Shown one piece after another: positions 2,771-20,135 of a DNA stretch of 64,000 bases (position 1 is the stretch's first letter; the number at the start of each line of letters is the position of its first letter). Both the position numbers and the translations under genes were made by a program. The stretch is from positions 113,104-177,103 of the forward strand of contig JACOXI010000003.1 of the NCBI GenBank assembly GCA_016176335.1, written 5' to 3'. The stretch is from Candidatus Daviesbacteria bacterium (GTDB lineage: Bacteria; Patescibacteriota; Microgenomatia; Daviesbacterales; UBA10151). Under the pieces are notes generated by a model that did no database searches, was not told where the DNA came from, and was given only the letters and a program-made list of their open reading frames with translations.

Positions 2771-4507
2771 TTACTTGGTTTCCACATTAAACAATGGTCC
2801 CACTATTTGAATATTGGCAGGCGCTCTTTGGTTAAAGTAATTTTTAAAATCCGAACCTGAAAAAGTTATCCCGTTAATAGTAACTGAGGTCGTTCGTCCA
2901 CTTCCAAAATCAGCACTAACAGAAACTGAGGAAGCATTATCAATAGGAGTCCCTCCTCTTGATCTAAGTTCTTGTTTTACCCTATCAGAACTCCAGTTAT
3001 CCGTTAGGGGACAACCTTGTTTAGGATCAGGTGGAGGAGCTGGTTTATCAGGTTGGAAGACAAAACATCCTAAAGAGGAATCTTTTTGCATAAGCATGAT
3101 TACATTGGCAATATCTGCAACTTCATCTAACTTAAGCCAGGCAGATTTGGCATATTCATTTCTATACCCTTGTGCCGCATAAAAACAGGGAGAATCTTTA
3201 TCATAAGCTTTGGAAAACAGATCCCCAAAGTTGCCTACATCCCCACCTATATCCCTAATTCTTTTGGTGAAAGAAGTGCCGGATCCCCAAACATCAGCGG
3301 ATGAAAAAGTATACCCTCCGTCTGTGGAAGAATACCAGGCTTTAACCGCCGACCCACCCGATACCATGACTTTTCCGTTAGTTTCGTTGACAGCCCGCTC
3401 CCAGTTTCCTCCTTTGTTGCCGCCTTTGTAAACCTGACACTGTTGGGTGGTGCAAATCTCTCCTGACCCATTGTTGGTGTAAGCCAGGGCATAAGAGCGG
3501 GCAGCAGCGGCTTGAGCTTTTAAAGCCTCAATCGGCCAGGAATCAGGCATCTCGTAAATGCCCAAAAGATAGGTTTCTAAAGGTATAGAGCCGTATCCTT
3601 GGACAGAAATATTAATGTTTGGTCTTTGTTCAAAACTAAAATCTTGGAAATAAGCTCTTAAGATATCTTCATGGCTTTGTCCAGCTTGGGCTCTACCTAA
3701 AGCCCCATACTGGTTCATACCAACTCTGTGCGGGATACCGAAAGTAAAGAAGGCAAATGCCGGTCTAAAACCCGGGTCCAAATTCCGGTCATCAGTACAA
3801 AACAGGGGGCCTGCACCCAAAGAAGTAGGCAGATTTAAGGATGCCTGTCTTTGAGCAATGATGGCTTGTTGACGAGCAGTCAGTTGAGCAATTTTTGAGG
3901 ATAGCTCGGACTGGAAGGCTTTGGCTTTGCTTATCTCCCCTCCTAAAAATTTGGCATTTTTATCTACTTCTGCTTGCAGGATGGCCAACCTGGCTTTATC
4001 TTTTTCCAGTTTATCTTTTTGGGTCAACAGATCAATCACTTCTTGAGTTATTGAGGAAATAATTTGCCTGTCTTCTTTGGCAACTGTTTGGCGGTAGGAT
4101 AATTCTCTGAATAAATCACCGGCTTGAAAGGAAGAAAGAATGACAATTAAAGGGTCTGAAAGAAATGACCTGATGTAATAGGCCCTGACCCTCTCTTCCA
4201 AAAGAGCTTGCTGAAGAGCAATTTTATCTTCTCTGACATCTAACTCTTTTTGTTTAGTCTGAATATTGGCGGATAAAGTGTTTAAGCTTGCCTGGATTTG
4301 GGCCAGTTGTCTTTGTAAAGAAGAAAACTGTCCTTCCAAAGGCTTGGTGGCGGAAACAGACAGCTCTCTTTGCTTGTTTAAATCATTAATTTGTCTTTGT
4401 AAATCCTCTATCTCATCAGCATGGACAGTTGGTAGTAAGTAGTTAGTAGTAAGTAGTAAGGAAAAAAAGGTGAAGATAGCTATCAAAAACTTTTTGCCAG
4501 AAGACAT
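2771..4507 (-). CDS. SpoIID/LytB-domain protein with N-terminal signal/TM and long coiled-coil
   Basis: Matches the SpoIID/LytB amidase-enhancer family (VGMNQYGALGRA, AAAARSYALAYT, YSSTDGGYT). ATG at 4507; an alternative TTG start lies at 4537. Confidence 0.75.
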   Translation of the reverse strand: MSSGKKFLIAIFTFFSLLLTTNYLLPTVHADEIEDLQRQINDLNKQRELSVSATKPLEGQFSSLQRQLAQIQASLNTLSANIQTKQKELDVREDKIALQQALLEERVRAYYIRSFLSDPLIVILSSFQAGDLFRELSYRQTVAKEDRQIISSITQEVIDLLTQKDKLEKDKARLAILQAEVDKNAKFLGGEISKAKAFQSELSSKIAQLTARQQAIIAQRQASLNLPTSLGAGPLFCTDDRNLDPGFRPAFAFFTFGIPHRVGMNQYGALGRAQAGQSHEDILRAYFQDFSFEQRPNINISVQGYGSIPLETYLLGIYEMPDSWPIEALKAQAAAARSYALAYTNNGSGEICTTQQCQVYKGGNKGGNWERAVNETNGKVMVSGGSAVKAWYSSTDGGYTFSSADVWGSGTSFTKRIRDIGGDVGNFGDLFSKAYDKDSPCFYAAQGYRNEYAKSAWLKLDEVADIANVIMLMQKDSSLGCFVFQPDKPAPPPDPKQGCPLTDNWSSDRVKQELRSRGGTPIDNASSVSVSADFGSGRTTSVTINGITFSGSDFKNYFNQRAPANIQIVGPLFNVETK

Positions 4508-4594
4508 GTTTTTAATTTTACCATCACGAGCTACCAACTACCATCTACTGGCTACTGATTTTAACTTGTGGTAAGCTGAAACTAATGTCCAAAG

Positions 4595-4825
4595 TTACTT
4601 AAGAAGTTTGATAAATTTATCTTTTGTAATTTCTAAATCTCTTTTGATGATTTTTGTTAACAGCCCAATACCGATGGTATCCGATGGATGAATAGGTATG
4701 GTAGTTCTCCTTCCATCAGAATGTATATAAACTGCATGGCTGCCGCTCTGATCACGGAATTGAAAACCCAATTTTAAAGTCACTTTTACTAAGTCCCGTG
4801 CTTTAATTTGGGGTAATTTTGACAT
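4595..4825 (-). CDS. hicA: HicA-family type II toxin (mRNA interferase)
   Basis: 76 aa. GSHAVYIHSDGRRTTIPIHPSDTIGIGLLTKIIKRD matches the HicA consensus (GSHxxxxhpdgrrxtvPxH). Lies immediately downstream of hicB. Confidence 0.8.
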   Translation of the reverse strand: MSKLPQIKARDLVKVTLKLGFQFRDQSGSHAVYIHSDGRRTTIPIHPSDTIGIGLLTKIIKRDLEITKDKFIKLLK

Positions 4826-5068
4826 TTAGACGGTAACTTCAAGTGAAGTTAAACTGACAGGCTGGACTTTAGGAATTTCTTGTCTGTCTTCTTTAGAAAT
4901 CTTTAAATTAAGTTTGATAGCATCACGGATGTTGGTAATTGCTTCCTCCAGTGTCTTACCTTGAGTATGACAACCCTGTATTTCAGGACAATCGGCTACA
5001 AAAAAACCGTCTTCATCTTTCTCGATAATTACAGGAAAATTGTAGGTGGTAGTTTTAATCTTTTTCAT
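4826..5068 (-). CDS. hicB: HicB-family antitoxin (UPF0150 fold)
   Basis: MKKIKTTTYNFPVIIEKDEDGFFVADCPEIQGCHTQGKTLEEAITNIRDAI is the HicB N-terminal domain. ATG at 5068; adjacent to hicA with no gap. Confidence 0.75.
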   Translation of the reverse strand: MKKIKTTTYNFPVIIEKDEDGFFVADCPEIQGCHTQGKTLEEAITNIRDAIKLNLKISKEDRQEIPKVQPVSLTSLEVTV

Positions 5069-5138
5069 AGCCAAATTGTACCATAAAATATTTTCAATCA
5101 CTAGTCCCAAAACCCTAAAATATGCTAAGCTGAAAATA

Positions 5139-6290
5139 ATGTCCAAGGTTAATAAAATTCTCGCAATAATATTTTTATTTAGTTTTGGCCTACTGGTTTA
5201 TTTCCCTCAGACAGTAGCGGCAGCCAATTGTCCCTTTACTTTTGATCCTCCTGTACCTTACCAAAATATGGGTGATTTATCGGTAACTATTACACCTCGT
5301 GATATAAAAAGTGGAACTTACCAACTTGTGACTTACAAAGGAAATATCTCCAAACCTGAAATAAATACACGTGGTGATATTCAATTAATTACAGGAAAGG
5401 CTGTTACCACTCAGCTCAAAAAACCACTCTCTGGATGGGAAGCAGGCACTTACACACTCTACCTGAGAGACCGAGATGTTGAGGGTAGTGTTCAAGATGT
5501 GGCTGCTTGTAAAACAAGCTTTTCCTTATCAGATATCCCAGCCCAACCTACATGTACGGCTAGTATAGAAACAAAACCAATTGATCCTGATACTAAAGTC
5601 GTATTAAAAATCTCCGATATTGCATCAGGTAATTACGATATATTAATAAATAATGAGTTTGCCGAGACATATAACACAAGTACCGGTGAAACAGTGTTTT
5701 TATGTAAGGGTGGAACTGAAGATAAGAATTGCAAATTTAATGTTGGTACCTATACAGTCACTATTAAAAACCAATGCGGATTCGGCGATTTCACTTGCAA
5801 AAGCCGGCTGCAGTGCAAGCCAGTAGCTTTCCAGGTTGCTCCTTTAGGAAGTGCTGGAGGTGGGCAGGTAGATACAACTCAAGTAGGGACTGCGACTACA
5901 AAGCAATGTAAAAGTAAGGATGATCCAACTTTCAATAAGAACACCGATATGGTTTGTGCTCTAGCTGGAGGGATTCCATGCGAGAATAAAAACGATGGCA
6001 GAGGACCAGCTTTTGCTACTGCCATTGGCTGTATTCATACCTCTCCTGTTGAATTTATCAAGGACTTTTTAAAGTTTATCTTGGGGATTTCCGGAGGATT
6101 GGCATTTTTGATGATGCTTTTGGGAATATTTCAGATGCTGACTTCTGCCGGTAATCCGGAGACTTTATCAGCCGGCAGGGACAGGTTGCAATCTGCCGTC
6201 ATAGGACTTTTGTTTGTAATTTTTGCTGTTCTTCTGCTTCGAATTATTGGAGTTGATATACTGGGACTGGGAGGACAGTTTGGTTTATAA
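5139..6290 (+). CDS. Secreted Cys/Thr-rich protein with C-terminal VirB2/TrbC-like pilin domain (candidate pilus-tip adhesin or major pilin precursor)
   Basis: Signal peptide (MSKVNKILAIIFLFSFGLLVYFPQTVAAA) and many Cys. The C-terminus (GIFQMLTSAGNPETLSAGRDRLQSAVIGLLFVIFAVLLL) carries the same motif as the five small pilin-like proteins downstream. Confidence 0.65.
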   Translation: MSKVNKILAIIFLFSFGLLVYFPQTVAAANCPFTFDPPVPYQNMGDLSVTITPRDIKSGTYQLVTYKGNISKPEINTRGDIQLITGKAVTTQLKKPLSGWEAGTYTLYLRDRDVEGSVQDVAACKTSFSLSDIPAQPTCTASIETKPIDPDTKVVLKISDIASGNYDILINNEFAETYNTSTGETVFLCKGGTEDKNCKFNVGTYTVTIKNQCGFGDFTCKSRLQCKPVAFQVAPLGSAGGGQVDTTQVGTATTKQCKSKDDPTFNKNTDMVCALAGGIPCENKNDGRGPAFATAIGCIHTSPVEFIKDFLKFILGISGGLAFLMMLLGIFQMLTSAGNPETLSAGRDRLQSAVIGLLFVIFAVLLLRIIGVDILGLGGQFGL

Positions 6291-6299
6291 TTTAAACCC

Positions 6300-6617
6300 A
6301 TGGAAAAGCTTGGTGATTTATTAAAAGATTCCGGTGTGCCAAACTTTAGCGGTCAAAATGCCAAACTTGGAGTACTTTTATCCGGCCTTTTAAACATAGC
6401 TTTTTATATTGCTGTTTTTTTGGCTTTTTATTGGCTGGTGTGGGGGGCTTGGGCTTATCTTTTTGCTTCAGGTAAAAAAGAAGACCTGGCCAAAGCACGG
6501 GCGCGAATCAGTTGGGCCTTAATAGGGTTAATTGTGATCTTTTTGGCTTACTTTATAGCCAAATATGCTTCGGAGTTTTTCCCAACACAATTTGGTAAAG
6601 GAGGAGGACCGTTTTGA
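6300..6617 (+). CDS. VirB2/TrbC-like pilin paralogue 1
   Basis: 105 aa, two TM helices. Family motif WGAWAYLFASGKKEDLAKARARISWALIGL (family consensus [WF]GAFxW[ML]TSGG(x)7AR(x)2I(x)2AxIG). Confidence 0.6.
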   Translation: MEKLGDLLKDSGVPNFSGQNAKLGVLLSGLLNIAFYIAVFLAFYWLVWGAWAYLFASGKKEDLAKARARISWALIGLIVIFLAYFIAKYASEFFPTQFGKGGGPF

Positions 6618-7018
6618 GAGAATTTAGAATTAAGCTTTTTTTGAATTATTTTTTTATAGCTTTATTCTTGATTCTTACAGCTTTATTCTTACCAATCCCT
6701 GCTTATGCTGCATCTCCTGCTCCCGGGGTAGATATTAAAGAGTATTTTGGTTTTGGAAATATTGGCTCTTTGGGGGAAGGGACTACCAGACTGGTGGAGC
6801 CGGCTTTTCAGTTAACAGCAGCAGTGGTGGTGATCTACTTTCTTTTGGGGGCATTTAAATACTTAAGGGCAGGTGGCAACAAAGAGGAACTGGAGGGTGC
6901 AAGGCAAATGATTATCCATGCCATTATTGGGTTTATAATACTCATGTTTGCTTTTTTGGTGTTACAGTTTATATTATCGAACTTGTTTAAAGTAACTGAT
7001 TTTCAGATAATAGGGTAA
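6614..7018 (+). CDS. VirB2/TrbC-like pilin paralogue 2
   Basis: 134 aa. Signal peptide, then GAFKYLRAGGNKEELEGARQMIIHAIIG. Overlaps the previous gene by 4 nt (operon). Confidence 0.6.
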   Translation: MREFRIKLFLNYFFIALFLILTALFLPIPAYAASPAPGVDIKEYFGFGNIGSLGEGTTRLVEPAFQLTAAVVVIYFLLGAFKYLRAGGNKEELEGARQMIIHAIIGFIILMFAFLVLQFILSNLFKVTDFQIIG

Positions 7019-7020
7019 TT

Positions 7021-7353
7021 ATGGATTTTTCAAAAAATTTCGGCTCTATTAGTCCCCCGCCTGCTATAAAAGATTTTATTGGCAGTGACCCAACAGGCGC
7101 AGGTGGAATTAGTCAGTTTTTAAGTAATCTTGTGACCCTGATTTATGGTTTAGCTGCCATAGTTTTGCTTTTTATGATCCTTTGGGGAGCTTTTGACTGG
7201 ATGACTTCCGGAGGGGAAAAAGAAAAGTTAGAATCTGCCAGAAATAAAATCATCAGTGCCATAATCGGCATCATGCTTTTTGCAGTGGCTTTTGCTATCA
7301 TCCAGGTTTTAGGCCAATTTACAGGATTTACATTTTTCGTCGGCCAAAAGTGA
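7021..7353 (+). CDS. VirB2/TrbC-like pilin paralogue 3
   Basis: 110 aa. WGAFDWMTSGGEKEKLESARNKIISAIIG. Confidence 0.6.
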   Translation: MDFSKNFGSISPPPAIKDFIGSDPTGAGGISQFLSNLVTLIYGLAAIVLLFMILWGAFDWMTSGGEKEKLESARNKIISAIIGIMLFAVAFAIIQVLGQFTGFTFFVGQK

Positions 7354-7410
7354 CCCTAATTCAACCAGCACTTGACAAGTAGTTTATACTTTGAATAAGA
7401 TTAAGACATT

Positions 7411-7785
7411 GTGAAAAAATTAGTTGTTTTATTATCAACCATTATTGCGCTTGTAGCCCCCAAGATAGCCTTTGCCGCTACTCCACCACCAGTTGTTGTT
7501 AGTCCTCCTCCTCAAGGATATCAGAATTTGGGAAATTTTATTACCCAAGCCATCACTTTGATTTTCGGGTTCGCCATTCTGGTAGTTTTGGTCATGCTGG
7601 TTTGGGGAGCATTTGAGTGGATTACCTCCGGAGGAGACAAGGAAGCTGTTGGCAAAGCCAGAAATAGAATTATTAATGCTTTGATAGGATTGGCTGTGTT
7701 GGCTGTGGCATATGCCCTGACAAAAGTGGCTGCAGATTTTGTAGGCATCAATCTTCTCAATATCACAATACCCGGACCGCCATAA
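7411..7785 (+). CDS. VirB2/TrbC-like pilin paralogue 4
   Basis: 124 aa, GTG start. Signal peptide AFAATPPP. WGAFEWITSGGDKEAVGKARNRIINALIG. Confidence 0.6.
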   Translation: MKKLVVLLSTIIALVAPKIAFAATPPPVVVSPPPQGYQNLGNFITQAITLIFGFAILVVLVMLVWGAFEWITSGGDKEAVGKARNRIINALIGLAVLAVAYALTKVAADFVGINLLNITIPGPP

Positions 7786-7830
7786 TTTTTCTATTTGATC
7801 TTTACAGCCTCTTAATGTTAACCTTAAAAT

Positions 7831-8145
7831 ATGGGTCCTGATGCAGCCGGATTAGATCAGATTGAGCAAGTTTTTACAAGTGTTATATCTGTGATGGTAG
7901 GTTTGGGGTTTGTGGCGCTTTTGGTACTTTTGGTTTTGGCCGGGTTCAAATACCTGACCTCCGGAGGAGAGCAAAAAGCTGTACAGCAGGCTCATCTAAC
8001 AGTTACCTGGGCGCTTTTGGGAATACTTTTTATGGCCATTGCCTGGCTGCTGCTGCAGCTTATTGAAAACTTTACCGGAATAAAAGTCACTACTTTTGAT
8101 ATTAAAAGTTTGTGTGAAGTTGGTGGCAAGCAATTTTGTAAGTGA
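7831..8145 (+). CDS. VirB2/TrbC-like pilin paralogue 5
   Basis: 104 aa. AGFKYLTSGGEQKAVQQAHLTVTWALLG. Confidence 0.55.
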   Translation: MGPDAAGLDQIEQVFTSVISVMVGLGFVALLVLLVLAGFKYLTSGGEQKAVQQAHLTVTWALLGILFMAIAWLLLQLIENFTGIKVTTFDIKSLCEVGGKQFCK

Positions 8146-8216: not shown

Positions 8217-9529
8217 ATGAGGGAACACTGGCAACCAACCATAGAAGCTAATCGGCCACCAAACCAGCGTGATTTGCTCACACAACTACCCAGACCACTT
8301 CGAATAGTTTCTGCTGCTTTATCAGCAGCCATCAGTTTAGCACTGGCTGCCTGTGGGCCTACCCCTGCGCCTACCCCTAAACCTAGTCCTGAACAACCAG
8401 GATCATCGCCTGCTGTGGCAACTAAAGTTGAGACCCCCCCTCCGCAAGGATTCTGCCTTTGGATGGAGAGGTATATTTTACACAAGGAACTCATCCTTCA
8501 GACGGTTCTTCTACTGGTATCAAAAGTGGCATTGACTTGGCCCCCAAAAGAGTGGTCAATTGTGCCTTGGGAACTAAAGCTTTAGTAGAGGAGCAAGCCG
8601 CCCTCGCTACTGCCTCCGGCATACTCACAATTGTAGGAAACGAGAAAGATGCCAATGACCCAAATCACAGTATTGTGGAAATACAAGAGAGTGGCACTGG
8701 ATTACGGTTCGGGCTGATGCATTTGAGTCAATTACCCGACCATGTCCAAGTTGGCGGTAGGGTCTTAGCAGGAGCCCCTATTGGTAAATCTTCTTGTGAG
8801 GTCCCGAAAGGAGGCAAGACTACCGGAGTCCACCTACACCAGTATGTCAAAGATAAAACGGGTAAATATCTTCCTATTAATGGATTCACTTTTTCCGGGT
8901 GGAGAGTTGCGGGAGACACTATGACTAAGGGGAATGAAAAAAGAGTGGCAGATCAAAGACGCTGCGCCACTGATCAAGCCTGTGGCGGAATCAGGAATGA
9001 TTTAGGAACATTTTGGAGGAGTTCAAAGAGTGGTCTAGTAGACTCTGTGAAAGTCGATCCCCTACCCACAGTTACTCCTACAAGAATAGTCCCAAAATCG
9101 CCACCTCGGCAGGCAGAGTCTATCCCTACCACCCCATCCGCAGCAGCTAGGTTATTCATCCAAGCACTCGTTTCTGGGGACAGCAACAAAGCCCTGCAAT
9201 TGATGCCAGTTCCTGGTCAGGCTACATACAAAGCGGTTATGCTTGGCATTTCAGATGCACTTCGTGCATGTTCAGGGAGCGTCACTGAAGCGTCACACGG
9301 TCTTCGAAGTTACTATAATATTAGTTTTACTCCTTCATGTGGAACATTTGGCAGTTATTACGACGCGCTGCCGTCACATGATGTTGGTAATGTTAAGGCG
9401 GCATTCGCGTTGCTTGGACAAATCGACCCCTTGCGTAATCGACGTTTGGTTGGATGTACGGTAACAGTCATGTCAGTCAATGACCAATGGAGGATTATGT
9501 ACTTACCTACATGCCTACCGTCTCAATAA
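8217..9529 (+). pseudogene. Lipoprotein M23-family (LytM-like) peptidase, split by a +1/-1 frameshift at a C7 homopolymer (8434-8440)
   Basis: Frame 0 encodes a lipobox signal (ISLALAACG) and a Pro/Thr linker. Frame 2 opens at 8432 and encodes M23 motifs (GIDLA...GTKALV; GVHLHQY). The two frames meet exactly at a cccccccc tract. The segment looks GC-richer than its neighbours. Confidence 0.55.
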
Positions 9530-9601
9530 GAGTTAAAAGTCGTGTTACTTAAAGAACTTTAAAACTTGCAAAAATAGATCGGTTTGTTTTACTGTTAGAG
9601 T

Positions 9602-11395
9602 ATGATACTTAGAATCAAGCGATTAGAATTAAGCAAAGCTTTCCTTTCGCATTTGCAAAACGTAAGAATTAAGCTTTTTGTATTCTTTATGCTTACTGCT
9701 TTATTCTTTTTGCTTATTCCTACTGCTTTTGCCCAAACCTCTACCCCCAGTGCAGTGCAGTCTACTGTCTACAGTCTACCGTCTACTGTCCAGCCCACCT
9801 CCCCTCTTTATACCGACCTTTTGGTAAATAATATGTTTCATACTTTTTCCTGTCTGGCTGTGGGGTCTTCTGTCATTGGCCAGCCATGTTTAACTTACCA
9901 GATGACCCAAAATGCCCAGGGTATGCTGCAAGGAGTACCTGTTTTATCCCAAACTAACCTGTCAGGAGGGGCTTTGGGGGCCACCACCTCTTTAATTGGC
10001 ATGTTGTATCTTAATCCGCCGGTTCGAACAGCTGATTATCTGGCATCTTTGGGAGAGCAGTTTGGAGTGGTAAAAGAAGCCCGGGCACAAGTTGGGGGAT
10101 CAGGAGCCCAGGTTTTAAGTCCAATTTTAAACCTTTGGCAGGTATCAAGAAATATATCTTATGTGATTATGATCATTATTTTTGTGATTATTGGGCTGAT
10201 GGTGATGTTTAGACAAAGAATCAATCCCCAAACAGTCATTACTGCCCAGGCAGCCCTTCCTGGATTGGTAATCGGCTTAATCTTAATTACTTTTAGCTAT
10301 TTTTTGGCAGGACTGATATCAGATACGGCATTTGTGGGAACCAATGTTGTGGGATATTATTTCTCTGCAGCACAGGGTATCCCTCCACAAAATTTGGTTG
10401 AAAATATGAAAGATAAGAATGTTTTGAGTATTTTCAGCCCGCTGACGGGAATTATTGACAAAGATAATGCCGCTAGTGCGCTGAGTTCTATATGGAACGG
10501 CTTAAGCGACGGAGCACAGCGCTTATTAACACTGTTGGCTATGTTTGTAACCGCCCAAACAATTTTGCAAGGCACAGAGTTTCTAAAGCTGATCAAAACC
10601 TTCGGAGAGCCCATTCAAGCGGCACTTACCACTATAGCAGTAGGCGCTACTTTGGCTAATCCTACAGCTCTTATAGGGCTTGCCTTAGCCTTTATAGCAA
10701 CTGCTGTATTGCTTTATTCCATGTTCAAATTATTGTTACGCTTAATCAATAATTATATAACCATCATATTTTTGACAATTACTGCTCCTTTCCAATTCCT
10801 GGCTGCATCGTTGCCTGGAAGACAAAGCATAGCCACAGGTTGGATCTTAAATATGCTTTGCAATGTTTTGGCATTCCCGGCGGTTTTTGCCGCTCTTTAT
10901 TTCGTGGCTTTTATTTTGGGACCAAATGTTGATGCTGTGAAAAAGCTACCTTTTCAAACCACTACCACTTCAATAACCGGAACTTCCACATTTCCTCTTT
11001 TTGGAGGTTTGGATCTTAACTTTATTAATATTCTTCTGGCATTTGGAGTTTTAGTGGCACTACCCAGTATCCCGGATATAATTTGCCGGACAATCGGCAG
11101 GGTGGGGGTAGCAGGACAGCTGATTGGCCAGGAAATTGGGGGCGGCATTGGCCAAGGCAGACAATATGCCGGTCAATTCCAGCAGGGCGTAGGAGCTGCC
11201 AGCGGTCAATTAGCCAGAGCCAGAGGCTTGTTTAATACTCCTGGGTATAAAATGGAGTTGATTCCCGGCACTATTGATCAATATAGGATTGTAGAAACAT
11301 ACGAGGCGGGAAGGGGTGCTACTTTTGGAGCTTTGACTAGACAAGGAATTCGCAAACCACCAAAATTAGAACCAGGCGTCAGGTCGGGAATATAA
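9602..11395 (+). CDS. VirB6/TrbL-like polytopic membrane protein of the type IV secretion-like system
   Basis: 597 aa. Signal peptide, periplasmic segment, then 6 or more TM helices. Gly/Gln-rich C-terminal tail. Its position after the pilin genes is typical for VirB6/TrbL. A possible later start is M at 9689. Confidence 0.55.
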   Translation: MILRIKRLELSKAFLSHLQNVRIKLFVFFMLTALFFLLIPTAFAQTSTPSAVQSTVYSLPSTVQPTSPLYTDLLVNNMFHTFSCLAVGSSVIGQPCLTYQMTQNAQGMLQGVPVLSQTNLSGGALGATTSLIGMLYLNPPVRTADYLASLGEQFGVVKEARAQVGGSGAQVLSPILNLWQVSRNISYVIMIIIFVIIGLMVMFRQRINPQTVITAQAALPGLVIGLILITFSYFLAGLISDTAFVGTNVVGYYFSAAQGIPPQNLVENMKDKNVLSIFSPLTGIIDKDNAASALSSIWNGLSDGAQRLLTLLAMFVTAQTILQGTEFLKLIKTFGEPIQAALTTIAVGATLANPTALIGLALAFIATAVLLYSMFKLLLRLINNYITIIFLTITAPFQFLAASLPGRQSIATGWILNMLCNVLAFPAVFAALYFVAFILGPNVDAVKKLPFQTTTTSITGTSTFPLFGGLDLNFINILLAFGVLVALPSIPDIICRTIGRVGVAGQLIGQEIGGGIGQGRQYAGQFQQGVGAASGQLARARGLFNTPGYKMELIPGTIDQYRIVETYEAGRGATFGALTRQGIRKPPKLEPGVRSGI

Positions 11396-11420
11396 GGAGA
11401 TAATAATCAACTTCGGTTTA

Positions 11421-14400
11421 TTAAAGAGCCATCTTATCAAATAACCACCCAGCCCAATCTCGACCATCAAACTTTTTGACCCATTTACCATCTTCAGATA
11501 CAAAATAGTAATACGGCTGCCTAAGTAATTTGTAGATTTCTGCCTCACCTTTATATGCCTGCACTCCACCTCCGGGCCCTTTATCCAGCAGCCAGTCTAC
11601 ATAAGCATTCCAAAACATTCTGGCAATATGCCTGGAACTCCCGGTATTCCTCTCCTTTTCTAGGGCTATAGCCGGATTAAACCTGCCATCCGGTAAAAAG
11701 ACATCTGTTTTCCTCAAATCCAATGCTCCGCCGGCATTTCTACTATCCGAGTACATTGTTCTAATAGTTTTTAATGTGTCCCAAACTCTGCCAAAAGAGT
11801 CCAATAGTATATGAAACACTTCTGTTTCTCCTTCAGGCTTCTGCAAAGCATCAGTTAATTTCTGCCTTATCTCTAACACTTTTTCAGCATTATTGGTTGG
11901 TTTCATAAATAACCCTTCATGATGAAGCCCTGTTTTAGGATCAATCCCACCAATCAAAGCAAACCACAAGGAGGTACCGCTATCCATCAGGTTAATAAAT
12001 TTAGTAATAGCAAACTGGCTGGCTATTCTTTGGCCTGTTAGTTCGTGAATTTTATCATCCATCATTGAAACAGCTCCTATTACTCCTTTGCGTCCTAAAT
12101 TACCAGCCATGGTGTCTGCATGTATAGGAGCCGCAGAGAGTGCTGCGGTAAATCTTCTGGCCCATCTTTTAGGCATTTTGGCAACTAAGGCTTCGATTTG
12201 CAAAGCAAACCTGAACTCCCCTCCTTGATCCTCTGTATAGTACCCAGTACCCATATATTCCGCATTACCATCCTTAGGTAAAAATCGTTCCTTGAAAGCA
12301 TCTCTGACATTGACCCAACCCAAAAGTGACTCTTCAACTGCAGCATCAAAAACAATCCCCTCTAAAGTCATCTGTTCTCCGGGAAACGCTTTGACCCTGC
12401 ATAAAGTCGGGTCCAAAGTCAAAAGTAACCCTGCGAGAATATCTGCATCTTCTGGCCGTATTAGTCCATCCCTGATTTGCCTGGCCTGGTCAAACACATA
12501 ATCAGGCAAAAGGGTATGGGTATTGTTGCTTTGATAAGCAAAATAGGTGTGGGCAGTATGTAAGGCTAAATAACTGTCTGCTGCAGTTGGGAAATCCAAA
12601 TCAACTTCTTCAGTAAAAACACCGACAACAACACCTTCCCCGTCATTACGTTCTGTTAACACATATTCACCTTTATAAATTTGGCTGTCCAGATTGACGC
12701 GCTGACGTTCCTTTCCTCCTGGTTTATCATAGACAATAGCTTTACCCAACTCATCAAAATCGCTCTCGCCTAAACCCACAGGTCTGCCATCTTGGCCAAA
12801 AACAATAATAGGTTGACCGTTTCGGGTGTAACCGAAAACATGCGGTCTTTTTAATTTTATTTGGCTAAGAGTAAGCGGTTGAGGTTCAACCTTCTCGGGC
12901 TTTAAATTACCGTCCTTATCGAAATAATCTAAGTAATCAGCTGCATAATCAGCATCAGAAAATTTTGCCGCAAAGCCTTTTTCACTAACCGCATCTAGAG
13001 CCCTTTCAAGCGCCTTCTGCACCATAGCTGACCTATATCTGGCTCTAAAGTTACCGTGCTTACCTTCGTCGTCTTTTTCATCCAGTCTTTTTTTAAAGTC
13101 CGGTTCATCCCAGATAGGCGAGTCGTCTCTGTATTTCATCCTAGTCCAATTCACCACAGCCATAACAGTCTTTTGAGCTAAATGAGCGGGTATTTGATCA
13201 ACAATTCTTTCCCTATCTTCCGGACTTAATCCGTTATATAAAGCTTGTTCCTCTGGGGAGAAAGTATCTCGTCTTTTACCCTTTGATATTCCATCCAAAA
13301 TCCACCCGATATGTTGATCCCTCGTAAATGTTGTTTTTCTTTTTTCAAGCGACCATTCGCTAATATCAGGATCTTCAGCTTTTTGATCCTTATGATTCTT
13401 TTGCCGGAACTTTAGGTACTCCCGGACGTATTTATTTCTCTCAATAAAGTAAACTGCTCCGCCTCTGATAGTTGTTTCATGAGTTACACCTTGCATCTGC
13501 ATAGCAACTTCAAAGCTGGCTTCTGAGATGGCATAAGCTTTCTCATATCGTTTCTTCTCTTTTTTTGTAATTCGTTTTAGACTCACCAATTTATCAATTA
13601 ACGTTTCCTTTCTTCCTAGAATTATTGTCCCTGTTCTAACTTCCTGCCTCAACGTATCCATCAAGACTTGAATCTTCCCTAATTTCACAGAATCCCGTAA
13701 TCTCTTAGGAAGACGGTCCGGATCTATACGTCTTTTACCAACATATTCCTGATAGTTGTTTCTATGAACATCACCGTTATCAAAACCTTCATACAAAGCC
13801 TTAAACGCCTCAGCAGATTGATGAATACCTATCCGCTCCTGATTAGTCCTGGTATGTAATTTTGCTTGCAAATAATATTTCCGATCTTCTTCCGTTAAAC
13901 TTTCCAAGTCATCATCATTTCTTTTAAGATGCTCATCGAGCTGCTCCAGGAATGTTGCTCTGTCTAAGCGTAATTTAGGATCAGAGTCAATCTCTGCATC
14001 ACGCCAGTCATAGTCTTTTAAGACAATACCTATTCCTCTTTCTTTCAATCTTTCATAAGTGATTCTTCTAATATACTCATGTACTTGAGTACTGTCTCCA
14101 AATTGTCCTCTTGAACCTTGGGCATTAAGAGCAAATTCTACCATTGCCAAATTATCCAGATTCCACGTATGAAATCCTACCCCTCCCTCTTCCCCTGAAC
14201 GGAGAGCTCTGGTCCATCTTTCCGGTCCTTCATGCATGGCCATGGCCATCGCACCCTGTTTAGCGCCTTCCTTGTTGTAATGCTCACTGTTATAAAAAGT
14301 GTGCCACAGGAAAGCCCTTCCTTCAAATTCCTGCCTCAACTCTTTCATAAAGCCAGCTGTCATCTTATCCGGCACATCATCCATACCTTCTTGCTCTAAT

Positions 14401-15671
14401 ACCAACTCATTTCCTCTTGCGCTCAACACTTTCTTGAAATTCAGCAAATTTTGCATTAACTCATTAGGATCATATCCCAGGGCACGATTTTTAAGCATTT
14501 GCAGAAAAGTTTCTTTTGCGATACGGAATTGGGCAGGAGTTTTAGCACTGATCGTGTAATAATCCGGATAACCGCCGTATGGTTCCCAATAAGTTTCTGT
14601 TCTCTCACCTTCCTCTTCTTCGCCCGGGATACGCCATTCGCCTTCCTTGTAAGGACCAGGGTTTTCACCATTAATTATTTTCCTAAGTTTTCCGCGCGTC
14701 CATACAATATATGCAGTTTCAATATCCAATAACCTGGGGTTAACCTGAGGATCTTTTGCTTTACCGAGCAGAGCATCCTCAAGGGCCTGTCGGGCTTCCG
14801 GCTCCCTTTGTGCCAATAAAGCCAAGGCCTGTTTTTTTGAATAGGTTTTATTCTTAAAACCCAAAAATATAGCGTTATAAACTTCATCAACTTCCTTGAA
14901 TAATCCTTTTCTATGAGCTTCCTTAAAATATATAAGTAAATCTTTTTCTACTTGTTCTCTTTCGGTAATTGGAAGACGCAGATTCAGATATTTGGCGGTT
15001 AAGGTTTCTAAATTCTCACCTCTTGTTTCAATCTCGGTGAAATCTTCAGGCCCGGGCCCGTCTGTCTTTTTTGCCAGTTCAACACCTCTAGCAATTCTCT
15101 CTGCATATGCCTCTTTTATTGCCTCAATGAGCGGCTTGTCAGGCTGCTTTGTGACTTGGTGCTCTTTCTCAAGATTTAAAGGATCTTGCAGGTATCTGTC
15201 TTTTTGCTCTCTCTCTACAAAAGCTTTTAACCCTCTAGACAATTCGTACAGCCTTGGACCATTTTCGGCATTCCATCTAACCTCATAAGACAGCTCCGTC
15301 TCCATATAGGTAATCTCCTCCACCAGCCATCTCCCTCTTTCCGGACTGACTTTCCATTCCGGTCCACTGGTTGGCTCTGGTAATACTGCAGTTTCAGCTC
15401 CTGCTATTTGTCTTATCCTGGCAACTTCTTTGCCTGTTGTTGGATCGGTAAAGACAGTAAAGCCGTCTCTTTCGCTCTTTAGATATTCTCCTGCTCTTTT
15501 AGGATCATAGTCCCTTGAAATATGCCAAGGTTTTTGAGGATTTTGCTCGCCGGAAGGTTGAACCGGAGGCTGGCTTTCAACGATTGCAAAACCTGTTTGA
15601 CCCTCGCCCCCCGGGGTTGCGCCTTCTGGTCCTAGTGTTCCTTCTGCCATATTTCTTTCTGGTTGTGCCAT
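11421..15671 (-). CDS. Very large (1416 aa) soluble protein of unknown function with acidic Pro/Glu-rich N-terminus; no recognisable catalytic motif
   Basis: Uninterrupted 4.25 kb ORF on the opposite strand to the flanking T4SS-like genes. No TM helices, P-loop, HExxH or methyltransferase motifs found by eye. Confidence 0.85.
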   Translation of the reverse strand: MAQPERNMAEGTLGPEGATPGGEGQTGFAIVESQPPVQPSGEQNPQKPWHISRDYDPKRAGEYLKSERDGFTVFTDPTTGKEVARIRQIAGAETAVLPEPTSGPEWKVSPERGRWLVEEITYMETELSYEVRWNAENGPRLYELSRGLKAFVEREQKDRYLQDPLNLEKEHQVTKQPDKPLIEAIKEAYAERIARGVELAKKTDGPGPEDFTEIETRGENLETLTAKYLNLRLPITEREQVEKDLLIYFKEAHRKGLFKEVDEVYNAIFLGFKNKTYSKKQALALLAQREPEARQALEDALLGKAKDPQVNPRLLDIETAYIVWTRGKLRKIINGENPGPYKEGEWRIPGEEEEGERTETYWEPYGGYPDYYTISAKTPAQFRIAKETFLQMLKNRALGYDPNELMQNLLNFKKVLSARGNELVLEQEGMDDVPDKMTAGFMKELRQEFEGRAFLWHTFYNSEHYNKEGAKQGAMAMAMHEGPERWTRALRSGEEGGVGFHTWNLDNLAMVEFALNAQGSRGQFGDSTQVHEYIRRITYERLKERGIGIVLKDYDWRDAEIDSDPKLRLDRATFLEQLDEHLKRNDDDLESLTEEDRKYYLQAKLHTRTNQERIGIHQSAEAFKALYEGFDNGDVHRNNYQEYVGKRRIDPDRLPKRLRDSVKLGKIQVLMDTLRQEVRTGTIILGRKETLIDKLVSLKRITKKEKKRYEKAYAISEASFEVAMQMQGVTHETTIRGGAVYFIERNKYVREYLKFRQKNHKDQKAEDPDISEWSLEKRKTTFTRDQHIGWILDGISKGKRRDTFSPEEQALYNGLSPEDRERIVDQIPAHLAQKTVMAVVNWTRMKYRDDSPIWDEPDFKKRLDEKDDEGKHGNFRARYRSAMVQKALERALDAVSEKGFAAKFSDADYAADYLDYFDKDGNLKPEKVEPQPLTLSQIKLKRPHVFGYTRNGQPIIVFGQDGRPVGLGESDFDELGKAIVYDKPGGKERQRVNLDSQIYKGEYVLTERNDGEGVVVGVFTEEVDLDFPTAADSYLALHTAHTYFAYQSNNTHTLLPDYVFDQARQIRDGLIRPEDADILAGLLLTLDPTLCRVKAFPGEQMTLEGIVFDAAVEESLLGWVNVRDAFKERFLPKDGNAEYMGTGYYTEDQGGEFRFALQIEALVAKMPKRWARRFTAALSAAPIHADTMAGNLGRKGVIGAVSMMDDKIHELTGQRIASQFAITKFINLMDSGTSLWFALIGGIDPKTGLHHEGLFMKPTNNAEKVLEIRQKLTDALQKPEGETEVFHILLDSFGRVWDTLKTIRTMYSDSRNAGGALDLRKTDVFLPDGRFNPAIALEKERNTGSSRHIARMFWNAYVDWLLDKGPGGGVQAYKGEAEIYKLLRQPYYYFVSEDGKWVKKFDGRDWAGWLFDKMAL

Positions 15672-16607: not shown

Positions 16608-17963
16608 CTAAATTAACGTCCCATTGCATACATAACACTTTTCAGTGCAGTAATTTACCTCTCCACAACTGATACAGCTTTTACCTTTCTTGCCTGCTTC
16701 TCCTCCAAAAACACTGCTTATGCTTCTAACTATTCCTGAAATCAAATTGCCGATCTTACTGGCAATACCTCCAACTGAAAATCCTGCTGATAATCCGCAT
16801 CCTCCTGCAACTACCCTGACTGCCTGATAACCCAGCCAGTTAACCTTCTCTTCCAAAGTCTTAAAAATAGGCATGATTTTATTTACAATTTTAGATGTCA
16901 TGCTTACCACTTTATCTTTTATACCAACTAAACCCTCCCAAATATAATCTGCTCCATTCAAAACAGCATTTAGGGCAACTTTTACCTGCTCGGGTGCAAA
17001 AACTGATCCACATATTCTATCTACCAAACAATGTATAAGGTCTGAACTCCCCTGGGCAATTTTTTGAAAACCCTCTTCTTTTAAAGCATTTTTCCTTTGT
17101 ATTAAGATCTCACCGCTACTTTCAAAAATAGGATTAGCCAGCAACCACTGATCTTTTGACCCTACCCTTCCATTAAAATAATCCGGTCTTGAAGCGGTTA
17201 TCATCTCTTCTGCCTGCTCATAACTTAAGTCTGAGGCAAAACGAGTCATTTGAACTATTCTTCTTCGAGTAAATGGGTCTTCTAAAAGCTCGTAACGATC
17301 CAAGAAATTATCAGTGAATATAGTACCTTCTACTAAACCAGGCCCTGAGATAACTTCAACTTTTAAATCTACTGGGGCGTTTGGATCTGCAAAAGCTTTC
17401 TGTATTTTTACAATACCAACCTTCTCTTGTTCTATTCTTGGAACATCATGTGATCCCATTTGCCTGTAATATTCAATGCCAACTGTTAAAACGTCTTCAA
17501 AAGCTTGATTGGGTAAATCCCTACTTCTTAACTTGCCATCATCATCAATATCATAAATAACAATACTGGTGGCTACATGGTAGCGTTCTCTTAGAGCAGT
17601 TTCTATCTGCTTTATTTCATGAAGTTTAAACTGTTTTCTTTCTTCTTCGGTTTGCAGAGTCTCAAACATTGCTCTTTCTAAAACAGGATTATAATTTCTA
17701 ACAGGCCCTCTTGCTTTTGTTTCTAAACTTCCATCAAATTGATTTTGTAATCTTGCTACTCTTGCTAAATATTCTTCAGTATCGAGTTTTTGTGTGTTAG
17801 AAACCCCTGTAGGGGGTAAGATTCGCTCGATTGGTCGCGCAATAACTATTGTATTATTAAAAGGGGAAACCTGTTCTCGTCTACCTCCTACATCCGGTTG
17901 AATTAAAATATCTAACTGCTTAAGATTTGGGGGTGTTAAATGTTGAAGTGTCTCTACTGACAT
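16608..17963 (-). CDS. Hypothetical 451-aa protein with Gly-rich segment and C-terminal Cys4 zinc-ribbon-like tail (CISCGEVNYCTEKCYVCNG)
   Basis: Long ORF. SD-like AGGAG lies 4 nt upstream of the ATG. No recognisable enzymatic motif. Confidence 0.7.
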   Translation of the reverse strand: MSVETLQHLTPPNLKQLDILIQPDVGGRREQVSPFNNTIVIARPIERILPPTGVSNTQKLDTEEYLARVARLQNQFDGSLETKARGPVRNYNPVLERAMFETLQTEEERKQFKLHEIKQIETALRERYHVATSIVIYDIDDDGKLRSRDLPNQAFEDVLTVGIEYYRQMGSHDVPRIEQEKVGIVKIQKAFADPNAPVDLKVEVISGPGLVEGTIFTDNFLDRYELLEDPFTRRRIVQMTRFASDLSYEQAEEMITASRPDYFNGRVGSKDQWLLANPIFESSGEILIQRKNALKEEGFQKIAQGSSDLIHCLVDRICGSVFAPEQVKVALNAVLNGADYIWEGLVGIKDKVVSMTSKIVNKIMPIFKTLEEKVNWLGYQAVRVVAGGCGLSAGFSVGGIASKIGNLISGIVRSISSVFGGEAGKKGKSCISCGEVNYCTEKCYVCNGTLI

Positions 17964-17974
17964 ATTGCTCCTGC

Positions 17975-18060
17975 AACGGGACCCTTCGACTACGCTCAGG
18001 GTAAATTGTGGTCGGTCTCCTGGCTCTTCGACTCGCTTCGCTCGCTCAGAGCTATAGCTT
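17975..18060. repeat. R2 GC-rich motif cluster upstream of the 451-aa gene
   Basis: Minus-sense reads TCTGAGCGAGCGAAGCGAGTCGAAGAG ... CCCTGAGCGTAGTCGAAGGG, directly before the RBS and ATG. Confidence 0.55.
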
Positions 18061-18163
18061 ACCGAATCACAGTTGCGGCACAGCCCCGGACTTACACCGG
18101 GTTCCCTTTTTGTATCTTCTCCCGCTTAAAGGCGGCATGATACACCACGTTTTAAGAATAACA

Positions 18164-18262
18164 ACTCAAAACTCAAATGTCAAAACTCAAAATTACAAAT
18201 CAAATCTCAAAACTTTTTAGATTTAAGATGTAGATTTGCGATTTGAGATCTAAGATTGAGAT
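18164..18262 (+). repeat. Dispersed ~100-bp repeat R1, copy b
   Basis: CTCAAAACTCAAATGTCAAAACT ... GATGTAGATTTGCGATTTGAGATCTAA. Matches 15-118 and the reverse complement of 45630-45735. Lies about 80 nt upstream of the gene at 18341. Confidence 0.55.
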
Positions 18263-19385: not shown

Positions 19386-20135
19386 ATGAGTACAACGCAA
19401 CAACATCTGTCCATATCTGACATCAAAGACAATATAATTTTGCTAAAAGACGGCGGCGGGGCCTTGGTTTTGCAAATTTCCGCCGTAAACTTCAGGCTTC
19501 TATCTGAACGTGAGCAAATTGCCATCATCAGTAGCTTTGCCCAAATGTTAAACTCGCTTTCTTTTTCTATCCAAATCCTAATTTTTTCAGAAAGATTAAA
19601 TATCAACTCTTATCTTGTGCTTTTGGATAAAGCCCAAAAATTACAGTCTAATCCGATGCTTTCCAATATGATCATAAATTACCGCCAGTTTATCCAAAAT
19701 ACCATCAAGGAAAACGAGGTCCTGGATAAAAAATTCTATCTAGTGATCCCGCTTTTTAATCTGGAGCTGGGGCTTGCACCCACCAGAGTTATTTTGCAAC
19801 AAAAAATCAAAACCATACTGCTTCCCAGAAGAGATCAAATAATAAGACAGCTTTCAAGAGTGGGGCTGGCAGCAATCCAACTGAACACAAATGAGCTGAT
19901 TGAACTATTTTATGATATTTACAATGGCCAGTTTGTGGAAAGTATGGCCTCAAAGCCAATTAGCGCCGATACAATGCAGGTCCAATTAAACCAACCTCAA
20001 GAGGCTGTTAAAACTTCAACATACAAATCTCAAGTTGTTGATCAACCCCAAGCTCCGCTACAACCAAGCCCTGCTACTACCCAGTCATCAAGAACACACC
20101 CGTTTGTGGTGGAGGAGTTAGATGAAAATACCTAA
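19386..20135 (+). CDS. VirB4 N-terminal-domain-like protein (no ATPase motifs)
   Basis: SISDIKDNIILLKDGGGALVLQISAVNFRLLSEREQ resembles the N-terminus of Gram-positive VirB4/TraE/PrgJ homologues. Overlaps the next ORF by 14 nt in a different frame. Confidence 0.45.
   Translation: MSTTQQHLSISDIKDNIILLKDGGGALVLQISAVNFRLLSEREQIAIISSFAQMLNSLSFSIQILIFSERLNINSYLVLLDKAQKLQSNPMLSNMIINYRQFIQNTIKENEVLDKKFYLVIPLFNLELGLAPTRVILQQKIKTILLPRRDQIIRQLSRVGLAAIQLNTNELIELFYDIYNGQFVESMASKPISADTMQVQLNQPQEAVKTSTYKSQVVDQPQAPLQPSPATTQSSRTHPFVVEELDENT

Follow-up and report, generated by a model that had tools for sequence, protein, structure and literature searches.

An array of six predicted VirB2-like pilin genes in fixed order, one of them with a variable ectodomain, in a type IV secretion locus of Candidatus Daviesbacteria

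A large part of bacterial diversity belongs to the Patescibacteria, which live attached to host cells. The locus described here raises the question of why such an organism should keep six pilin-domain genes in a row: as interchangeable variants, as non-redundant parts of one assembly, or as components of something other than a pilus. The genes lie in a stretch of 64,000 nucleotides (nt) of Candidatus Daviesbacteria DNA (assembly GCA_016176335.1, contig JACOXI010000003.1, positions 113,104 to 177,103), which we call the window. A sequence-only reading of the window had proposed a six-member pilin family whose long first member could be a tip adhesin or a variable major subunit, and had linked the tandem copies either to antigenic or host-range variation or to a multi-subunit pilus. 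Comparison across species points to a fixed heteromeric set of pilins rather than interchangeable variants. The 383-amino-acid (aa) product of the first gene is identical to NCBI entry HYS96_00785 of a Candidatus Daviesbacteria bacterium (database comparison), and the window is therefore placed in the Microgenomates/Patescibacteria (candidate phyla radiation, CPR).

The array consists of six co-oriented open reading frames (ORFs) on the + strand between positions 5139 and 8145, encoding proteins of 383, 105, 134, 110, 124, and 104 aa and packed with intergenic gaps of -4 to 57 nt. They are numbered here as classes 1 to 6 in array order.

5139-6290, + strand: class 1 long pilin, 383 aa; PF18895 at residues 302-369, 34.9 bits
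6300-6617, + strand: class 2 short pilin, 105 aa, no signal peptide; PF18895 37.4 bits; conserved C-terminal GG(L/P)PF tail
6614-7018, + strand: class 3 short pilin, 134 aa, TTG start; PF18895 34.6 bits; signal peptide ending AYA, followed by AS
7021-7353, + strand: class 4 short pilin, 110 aa, no signal peptide, no Cys; PF18895 43.1 bits
7411-7785, + strand: class 5 short pilin, 124 aa, GTG start; PF18895 36.7 bits; signal peptide ending AFA, followed by AT, then a Pro-rich N terminus
7831-8145, + strand: class 6 short pilin, 104 aa, no signal peptide; PF18895 28.2 bits; C-terminal CX(6-12)C loop

For every one of the six ORFs, the whole-protein score lies above the curated gathering cutoff of PF18895 (T4SS_pilin; 26.6 bits), at 28.2 to 43.1 bits and E values of 2e-6 to 4e-11, and their relatives match the family as well, with hits at an E value of ≤0.01 for 43/43 class 4/5 and 33/33 class 1 orthologs. 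In a six-way alignment, identity to the long protein is 24 to 28%, register and spacing are fixed, G/A/G/A/G columns are invariant, and the Arg of the "AR" position is present in five of the six ORFs (His in ORF6). A hydropathy scan found exactly two hydrophobic helices in each module, separated by a polar, charged loop of 13 to 26 residues, and an extra N-terminal signal-peptide-like segment in ORFs 1, 3, and 5. The AlphaFold2 models are helical hairpins, with predicted local distance difference test (pLDDT) values of up to >95.

Because the PF18895 scores lie above the cutoff, the spacing is fixed, and the columns are invariant, we attribute the shared feature to homology rather than to composition. 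An artefact of hydrophobic segments in otherwise unrelated ORFs would be in keeping with short hydrophobic proteins and with their weak, spurious matches to many membrane families, but it would have to account for six scores above a curated Pfam cutoff, conserved spacing and columns, hundreds of homologs, and synteny in 33+ genomes, and we give it practically no weight; the C-terminal alignment by which the sequence-only reading had proposed to unmask such an artefact revealed conserved spacing and charged positions instead. The six ORFs are thus very probably VirB2-like pilin-domain paralogs of a type IV secretion system (hereafter T4SS).

The family proposed by the sequence-only reading therefore stands on PF18895 homology and conserved spacing, and its lengths for the short proteins (104 to 134 aa) and its view of the long one as a secreted protein with a C-terminal pilin module (PF18895 at residues 302 to 369 and the AlphaFold2 model) hold, while several of its details need correction. 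The motif said to be common to all six matches, as written, only ORF4, with ORF5 one position off and the others looser, and it is not followed by a transmembrane (TM) helix, since it takes in the last part of helix 1, the loop, and the first part of helix 2. The long protein has 383 rather than 384 aa and 12 rather than about 20 Cys, and its Thr-rich region amounts to 37 Thr (9.7%) and a short Thr/Gly-rich linker at residues 236 to 256.

Profiles of the individual classes, built from the six genes, detected no further pilin copies in the window. In a published survey (PMC12102498), a VirB2 array was defined operationally as at least two PF18895 or PF04956 genes, in tandem or with one non-pilin gene between them, within ±20 coding sequences (CDS) of virB4; the six consecutive PF18895 genes described here, with VirB4 ~7 CDS downstream, fall within that definition.

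Are the six genes interchangeable? In three long contigs with homologs of the long protein (L001 to L003), the layout around the array is shared and comprises a SpoIID-like gene on the minus strand, the long pilin, four or five short pilins, a membrane protein of ~600 aa, and a convergent gene for 1,300 to 1,470 aa. Best matches follow position, with 53 to 73% identity at the same array position versus 18 to 48%, with much lower scores, at other positions. Scanning one genome per GTDB species yielded 76 loci, and class profiles assigned the order 1-2-3-4-5-6 in ~40 species-level Daviesbacteria-like loci. In a neighbor-joining tree of 198 pilin cores from 33 species-level genomes, labeled by array position only, each position formed a clean split containing 33 of 33 sequences, and the nearest neighbor of every core (198/198) sat at the same position. 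The mean distance among these cores was 0.34 within a position versus 0.74 between positions, and identity was 54 to 61% within classes 2 to 6 versus ~25 to 30% between classes. More distant Microgenomates (Woesebacteria, Shapirobacteria, and others) carry two to nine genes, with a class-1-like gene first and a class-6-like gene last in the longer arrays. To judge from these comparisons, the species scan shows the six genes to be six anciently diverged orthologous classes in a fixed order and not interchangeable copies.

This result bears directly on the proposal that the paralogs are interchangeable, with one or a few used at a time for antigenic or host-range variation, which was also suggested in PMC12102498 by way of Bartonella and Anaplasma. 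Six divergent tandem copies at ~25% identity would suit it, as would that analogy in the literature, the two to nine copies of the more distant lineages, and promoter-like hexamers ahead of classes 5 and 6, although the count of such hexamers is not above that in shuffled sequence. In 33 species, however, each class has its orthologs at a constant place in the order, cleanly split in the tree and at 54 to 61% identity; the classes differ in fixed structural features, and variation is concentrated in the ectodomain of a single class. At the DNA level, similarity between paralogs is confined to 51 to 80 nt over the motif-coding region (61 to 80% identity). The array and the window DNA contained no tandem repeats, silent cassettes, long repeats, or convincing inverted repeats, and no recent duplicates were found among the six genes. 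Near-identical tracts, invertible elements, and copy turnover, by which antigenic variation would be recognized, did not appear, and the six classes are stable in the 33 species. Fixed-order orthology without repeats therefore argues against ongoing tandem diversification or switching and for non-redundant subunits, and we regard switching as improbable. Of the two uses that the sequence-only reading had seen for the tandem genes, ongoing antigenic variation does not agree with ancient paralogs that lack repeats, cassettes, and invertible segments, and the multi-subunit pilus fits the position-specific splits and the fixed order in 33 species-level genomes.

Side observations were made on the loci themselves. 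In eight of them (L004, L011, L012, L013, L015, L019, L024, and L026), the array is interrupted between class 3 and class 4 by 1 to 5 kb of cargo, including AAA_14/DUF4143 ATPases, AbiEi/AbiEii-like pairs, and a Fic protein; a recurrent cargo gene on the minus strand encodes a Pro/Thr-rich, coiled-coil, C-terminally anchored membrane protein. The window array has no insertion at this site. Several genome records with a Microgenomates-type locus are titled "uncultured Gammaproteobacteria bacterium" (L009 to L011, L015, L016, L019 to L022, and others), and two locus records are titled Bathyarchaeia and Methanoperedens (L048 and L071); these non-CPR titles are probably placeholder names or mis-binned contigs rather than real occurrences outside the CPR.

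If the six positions are not interchangeable, what distinguishes the first? The class 1 protein can be divided into the following regions (all on the + strand), with identities to the window protein calculated over its 29 closest full-length homologs.

Residues 1-29 (nt 5139-5225, + strand): signal peptide, ending VAAA, followed by N
Residues 30-130 (nt 5226-5528, + strand): beta-sandwich 1; 30% identity
Residues 131-235 (nt 5529-5843, + strand): beta-sandwich 2; 43% identity
Residues 236-256 (nt 5844-5906, + strand): Thr/Gly linker; 33% identity
Residues 257-300 (nt 5907-6038, + strand): four-Cys stalk; 47% identity
Residues 301-383 (nt 6039-6287, + strand): pilin helical hairpin; 74% identity

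The AlphaFold2 model (pLDDT 86) shows a signal helix, beta-sandwiches at residues 31 to 130 and 140 to 233, a small Cys-containing beta module at 242 to 300, and hairpin helices at 303 to 335 and 340 to 374. Fold searches matched tandem immunoglobulin (Ig)/fibronectin type III (FN3)/macroglobulin-like domains of surface and adhesion proteins; the matches were generic beta-sandwiches, with no specific adhesin family among them. The Cys pairs C31/C124 and C139/C226, together with C257, C273, C281, and C298, are kept in 29 to 30 of 30 aligned class 1 sequences.

Conservation is distributed very unevenly along this protein. Its hairpin is the most conserved among the six classes (74 to 82%), and the C-terminal module has a mean identity of 59% across 31 species; the ectodomain averages 16% and is BLAST-detectable in 24 of 465 pairs. 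Among the 120 best database matches, 85 share the C-terminal part only, and similarity mostly begins at about residues 240 to 280, where the ectodomain meets the stalk. With the C-terminal module as query, phmmer found 9,203 matches at an E value of ≤0.001 among 1.84 billion cluster representatives (clusters at 50% identity), 217 of them at ≤1e-30, and in the best 150 matches the module was always extreme C-terminal, in proteins of mostly ~290 to 620 aa with N-terminal parts of varying length. Minimal class 1 forms of 118 to 135 aa in related lineages consist of a signal peptide, a "C...TAIGC" loop, and the hairpin, and other lineages have very large class-1-like forms of 566 aa (L075, 7564-9264) and 1,248 aa (L058, 2478-6224). 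On these comparisons, class 1 is a conserved pilin base on which lineages have placed or swapped outer domains of their own. Cys-rich repeat ectodomains were also seen in Woesebacteria-like loci (L054 and L056).

These data also bear on whether the 383-aa protein could be the major, variable filament subunit, so that every subunit would carry an ectodomain. Class 1 is indeed the first gene of the operon and its pilin module is strongly conserved, but a globular domain of ~270 aa on each hairpin of ~80 aa would be sterically extreme, judging from F and T pilus geometry; the minimal homologs of related lineages make the ectodomain an add-on, and five further conserved classes would be left without a role. 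With an outer domain of that size and the most conserved hairpin of the six, the variable major subunit of the sequence-only reading is very improbable. Its other suggestion, a tip adhesin, is compatible with an Ig/FN3-like ectodomain that varies between species on a conserved disulfide stalk, and we infer that class 1 may be a pilin-anchored adhesin or host-specificity module. A published survey found no PrgB-type adhesin in Patescibacteria. Since one class carries nearly all of the variability, in an exposed ectodomain, it offers a concrete and testable host-recognition candidate.

A diversity-generating retroelement (DGR) or a cassette was considered as the source of the ectodomain variability and rejected: the 64-kb window contains no second copy of the ectodomain DNA, the insertions in related arrays lack a reverse transcriptase, and bAvd-like genes flank the long pilin only in L001 and L003, with part of the window ORFs having been scanned for a DGR. 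In L001, these bAvd/23S-IVP-like four-helix-bundle genes lie on both sides of the long pilin (9578-9934 and 11203-11559), and in L003 after it. The short space that separates the SpoIID-like gene from the long pilin is a hot spot for insertions, occupied by HicA/HicB in the window (4595-5146, minus strand) and by PIN/MazE in L003. The inserted genes noted in L003, PIN/MazE and bAvd-like together, are at 9215-9920 and 10996-11385.

The five short pilins each have characters of their own. Class 2 has TM helices at residues 25 to 43 and 70 to 88, and its position-2 orthologs are 53 to 66% identical; class 3 begins within class 2, overlapping it by 4 nt, and its orthologs are 57 to 60% identical. 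Class 4 occurs in relatives in short forms of 110 to 127 aa, almost all without Cys, and in long forms of 140 to 434 aa, most with 2 to 29 Cys in an N-terminal Cys-rich extension; the window protein is of the short form. Class 5 gives a hairpin at residues 40 to 72/77 to 110 in the AlphaFold2 model (pLDDT >95), a weak match to the TrbC/VirB2 family PF04956 (18.3 bits, E value of 0.0027), and a match to NF045849 (E value of 3.2e-7). The C-terminal Cys pair of class 6 is kept in 23 of 32 orthologs (species).

Signal-peptide-like N termini, judged from sequence and hydropathy, occur in classes 1, 3, and 5 only, and a TraF/TrbF-type (S26) peptidase was not found among the locus ORFs scanned. Because conserved Cys pairs lie on the N-terminal side of helix 1 in class 1 and on the C-terminal side of helix 2 in class 6, the hairpins are expected to have both termini outside, as in VirB2/TraA. 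Large N-terminal fusions were also observed outside class 1, at L030 5153 (756 aa, class 3), L030 9639 (434 aa, class 4, 29 Cys), and L024 6192 (304 aa, class 6), and the pilin hairpin looks like a general display anchor.

Inspection of the six genes found a clear Shine-Dalgarno sequence only at class 3. The two best sigma-70-like hexamer pairs (+ strand, 10/12 matches; 7372-7401 and 7801-7830) stand in front of classes 5 and 6, in the only gaps of the array that exceed 40 nt. A promoter and terminator scan gave counts not above those of shuffled controls, and internal promoters before classes 5 and 6 are only hinted at by these sites.

Which machinery would such pilins serve? The genes around the array are listed below.

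2771-4537, - strand: SpoIID-domain, PcsB-like coiled-coil cell-wall protein; PF08486, E value of 9e-20; conserved upstream neighbor of the array, at the same position in L001 to L003
8217-9529, + strand: lipoprotein M23 peptidase (cell-wall hydrolase), split by a frameshift (frame analysis); Peptidase_M23, E value of 1.4e-4
9602-11395, + strand: 597-aa polytopic membrane protein, downstream of the array; 7-8 hydrophobic segments; syntenic in 28/30 loci
11421-15671, - strand: 1,416-aa protein, no assigned domain; convergent with the array; syntenic in relatives (1,299-1,474 aa)
18341-19384, + strand: PrgI/VirB3-like membrane protein with a C-terminal beta-sandwich; PF12666 PrgI 26.8 bits (cutoff 27, borderline); CarboxypepD_reg
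19386-20135, + strand: TrsD-like protein, 249 aa, similar to the N-terminal part of VirB4; NF041427 TrsD, E value of 2.9e-5; VirB4_plasma positions 108-280
20122-21879, + strand: VirB4-family T4SS ATPase, 585 aa; NF045971 conju_CD1110 383.6 bits (cutoff 325); TraG P-loop, AAA_10
21895-24135, + strand: SLT-domain lytic transglycosylase (VirB1-like role); PF01464 28.5 bits (cutoff 21.3)
24608-25708: dnaN (profile scan)
26344-27660: dnaA (profile scan)

The array lies ~12 kb from virB4, with unrelated genes between them, and rnpA and yidC adjoin the locus beside dnaN and dnaA. Because genes for VirB4, the TrsD-like and PrgI-like proteins, and the hydrolases occur together with dnaN, dnaA, rnpA, and yidC nearby, gene content shows the array to belong to the chromosomal, oriC-proximal, monoderm-type T4SS locus described for Patescibacteria. 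The features by which that locus is recognized (chromosomal location, VirB4, TrsD, PrgI/VirB3, and often the vicinity of dnaA/dnaN) are all found, PrgI with a borderline score.

Several neighbors deserve separate mention. VirB4 is divided into the 249-aa TrsD-like ORF and the 585-aa ATPase, which overlap by 14 nt. The M23 gene is shifted by one base in a C7 run at 8434-8440, giving two overlapping ORFs, the first (frame 0) with the lipobox LALAAC and a Pro/Thr-rich linker and the second (frame 2) with the M23 domain; intact orthologs occupy the same slot in L009 and L041, and the shift may come from faulty assembly, mark a pseudogene, or serve slipped-strand phase variation. The 2-kb stretch around this gene has the highest GC content in the window (0.45). 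The 597-aa protein is, by inference from polytopic topology and synteny only, a candidate VirB6/PrgH-type channel or assembly platform; a per-member scan of 28 orthologs gave no Pfam match except two weak ones to TcpE (E value of 0.0045), and a PDB sequence profile search gave none. For the 1,416-aa protein, Pfam and NCBIfam scans were without a match; it has no hydrophobic segment and an acidic, low-complexity N terminus, stands convergent beside the array in all long relatives, and may be a partner or substrate of the T4SS. Directly upstream of a 451-aa ORF (16608-17963, minus strand) lies a cobalamin riboswitch (RF00174, 62 bits; 17993-18164, minus strand). The ORF matches neither Pfam nor NCBIfam, lacks a signal peptide, and sits among the T4SS-associated genes; a vitamin B12-regulated gene without an assigned function is unexpected in so reduced a CPR genome.

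Taken together, the explanation that we favor, and hold to be moderately probable, is a T4SS pilin array whose products form a heteromeric assembly with class 1 as its adhesin. In the mechanism that we propose, the six proteins would insert into the cytoplasmic membrane as hairpins that leave both termini outside, with cleavable signal peptides for classes 1, 3, and 5 and short N-terminal tails in their place for classes 2, 4, and 6. The VirB4/TrsD ATPase, together with the PrgI/VirB3-like protein and the polytopic protein encoded downstream, would pull them out of the membrane and assemble them into one heteromeric, envelope-spanning pilus or conduit, for which the neighboring M23, SLT, and SpoIID-type hydrolases would open the cell wall. 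Classes 2 to 6 would be structural subunits with non-redundant places, like the minor pilins of type II secretion systems (T2SS) and type IV pili (T4P). Class 1 would be anchored by its most conserved hairpin, would present a disulfide-stabilized stalk and a species-specific ectodomain to the outside, and would serve the system as its adhesin or host-recognition module. This specific filament-with-adhesin mechanism is tentative, and we rate it a little short of probable.

Several observations weigh against it. No filament has been seen for any Patescibacterial T4SS, and reviews call one only possible (PMC12857230). A class 4/5 profile had no match to solved conjugative pilins among all PDB sequences, and three of the six classes have no signal peptide, unlike classical VirB2/TraA precursors. 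The Ig/FN3-like folds are generic and give no proof of adhesion, and the VirB6 identity of the 597-aa protein has no profile support from Pfam or PDB. The closest curated relative outside Pfam belongs to integrative and conjugative elements (ICEs) of wall-less Mycoplasma, which have no known pilus and whose gene is described as VirB3-like.

The relation to known families adds to this discussion. Against PF04956 (VirB2/TrbC), the six proteins stay below the cutoff of 27.9 bits, ORF5 coming closest with 18.3 bits, and 9 of 43 class 4/5 orthologs match at an E value of <0.01 (best, 2.6e-5), which represents remote similarity only. The PDB profile search with class 4/5 gave chance matches only (a light-harvesting protein at an E value of 0.13), and fold comparison matched no solved pilin specifically. 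The Mycoplasma ICE family NF045849 aligns with all six modules over positions ~3 to 79 of 80, at 17.8 to 29.9 bits and E values of 3e-7 to 2e-3; since its equivalog cutoff of 40 bits is not reached, the modules are homologous to the family and not members of it. The same family aligns with 41 of 43 class 4/5 orthologs, and the window VirB4 also matches the Mbov_0397 family (E value of 2e-79). In Mycoplasma ICEs, the small proteins are described as VirB3-like and stand beside an eight-TM VirB6-like protein and VirB4 (PMC12857230). With all six modules aligning to NF045849, monoderm-type T4SSs may have the hairpin protein as a native component instead of having borrowed it from diderm systems; PMC12102498 left this choice of origins open, and the kinship with the Mycoplasma ICE protein bears on it. 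By the same alignment, at least some monoderm (MPF-FATA-like) systems, commonly described as lacking pilins, would appear to have a hairpin protein of the VirB2/VirB3-like type.

The same kinship is an argument for a different arrangement, in which the hairpins would be membrane-embedded channel or assembly-platform subunits of the T4SS (VirB3-like or VirB2-like) that never polymerize outside, and class 1 would be an anchored surface protein. All six modules and 41/43 orthologs match the Mbov_0395 family; the ICE neighborhood of a small 2-TM protein, an 8-TM protein, and VirB4 belongs to wall-less cells with no known pilus, where the small protein is called VirB3-like (PMC12857230); T4SSs of the Gram-positive type generally lack pili; and no solved pilin gives a sequence match or a specific fold match. 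For a channel accessory, nevertheless, six non-redundant hairpin classes are many. The high conservation of the class 1 hairpin (74 to 82%) suggests packing against partners rather than a passive anchor, an ectodomain of ~270 aa confined to the membrane would lie beneath the cell wall, and curated Pfam and NCBI naming, weak TrbC matches, and the structure-based Southlakia annotation (PMC10633639) favor pilins. We therefore consider a membrane-only role rather unlikely.

Part of this picture had been described before. A survey reported 441 arrays of 2 to 11 VirB2-like genes in 383 assemblies, especially of Microgenomatia and Saccharimonadia, with a mean within-array identity of ~25%, and its authors proposed that array variability may aid adaptation to different hosts (PMC12102498). 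Its supplement, in the part available to us, lists PF18895 matches and Daviesbacteria genomes and gives no lengths or architectures there (PMC12102498). Wang et al. (2023) showed that a T4SS and a predicted pilin series are essential for epibiotic growth of Southlakia epibionticum (PMC10633639), the one Patescibacterial species in which this has been tested. A 2025 review described six structurally conserved, sequence-divergent VirB2-like pilins and treated a pilus-like structure as a possibility only (PMC12857230), and the role of the Patescibacterial T4SS has been called completely unknown (PMC11665869). The Daviesbacteria array is thus a clean example of a documented kind of system and not a new kind. 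The additions made here are incremental: orthology that follows array position, variability gathered in a single decorated class, and the link to Mycoplasma ICEs. None of the three was found in the literature examined.

With the hypothesis of a class 1 adhesin, it becomes somewhat easier to test what the Patescibacterial T4SS touches. In its boldest form, class 1 would be the missing adhesin or host-specificity determinant, seated by its conserved hairpin, probably at the tip of a heteromeric six-subunit, VirB2-type monoderm pilus, with modular, disulfide-stabilized ectodomains exchanged between lineages to match their hosts. We offer this as a speculative possibility that is more doubtful than the mechanism outlined above. 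If it is true, the ectodomain type would predict the host range of uncultivated episymbionts, and the fixed set of six classes would give a T4SS pilus its first described case of "minor pilin" logic.

How does the array compare with known systems? Its closest counterparts are other Patescibacterial arrays (Southlakia epibionticum ML1 SEML1_0006-0019, the TM7x "Sec secreted array," and the 441 arrays of PMC12102498), with which it shares PF18895, tandem arrangement, ~25% identity, and a chromosomal place near virB4 and dnaA/dnaN, with no relaxase or coupling protein seen nearby; the literature likewise reports none for most Patescibacterial loci. Six copies occur here as in Southlakia. Unlike in the published descriptions examined, where divergence was read as versatility in host adaptation and neither class-by-position orthology nor a large swapped ectodomain was reported, both are found here, and the distance of ~12 kb from virB4, with unrelated genes in between, also sets this array apart.

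The VirB2/TrbC/TraA pilins of diderms (PF04956) are likewise small, with two hydrophobic helices, a short charged loop, some signal peptides, and genes for VirB4 and VirB3-type proteins in company. The Daviesbacteria array differs from them in its monoderm host, in six classes versus one major pilin, in three classes without a leader, in the lack of VirB5, and in that no TraF/TrbF-type peptidase was seen among its scanned locus ORFs. The Mycoplasma ICE Mbov_0395 family (NF045849; ICE CDS15 region) shares the small hairpin protein, the polytopic membrane protein, and the VirB4 neighborhood; it is present in a single copy versus six here, and its element is conjugative, with a VirD4 homolog. The virB2 arrays of Bartonella and Anaplasma are also tandem copies in a non-conjugative T4SS, but those copies are thought to serve antigenic variation (cited in PMC12102498), whereas the Daviesbacteria classes are ancient and give no sign of turnover.

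For the division of labor that we propose, two further comparisons are instructive. The minor pilin sets of T2SS and T4P (GspH-I-J-K; FimU-PilVWX with PilY1) are fixed, ordered, divergent subunits with one large-domain member at the tip. The Daviesbacteria array resembles them by analogy only, as a conserved set in which one member has a large extra domain; type IV pilins belong to an unrelated fold and family, with one N-terminal helix, a globular head, and a prepilin peptidase, and no homology is claimed. VirB5 at the pilus tip and the Gram-positive adhesin PrgB would be functional analogs of class 1 in its proposed contact with the target cell; class 1 has no sequence or fold relation to either, and its adhesin-like domain is fused directly to the pilin module.

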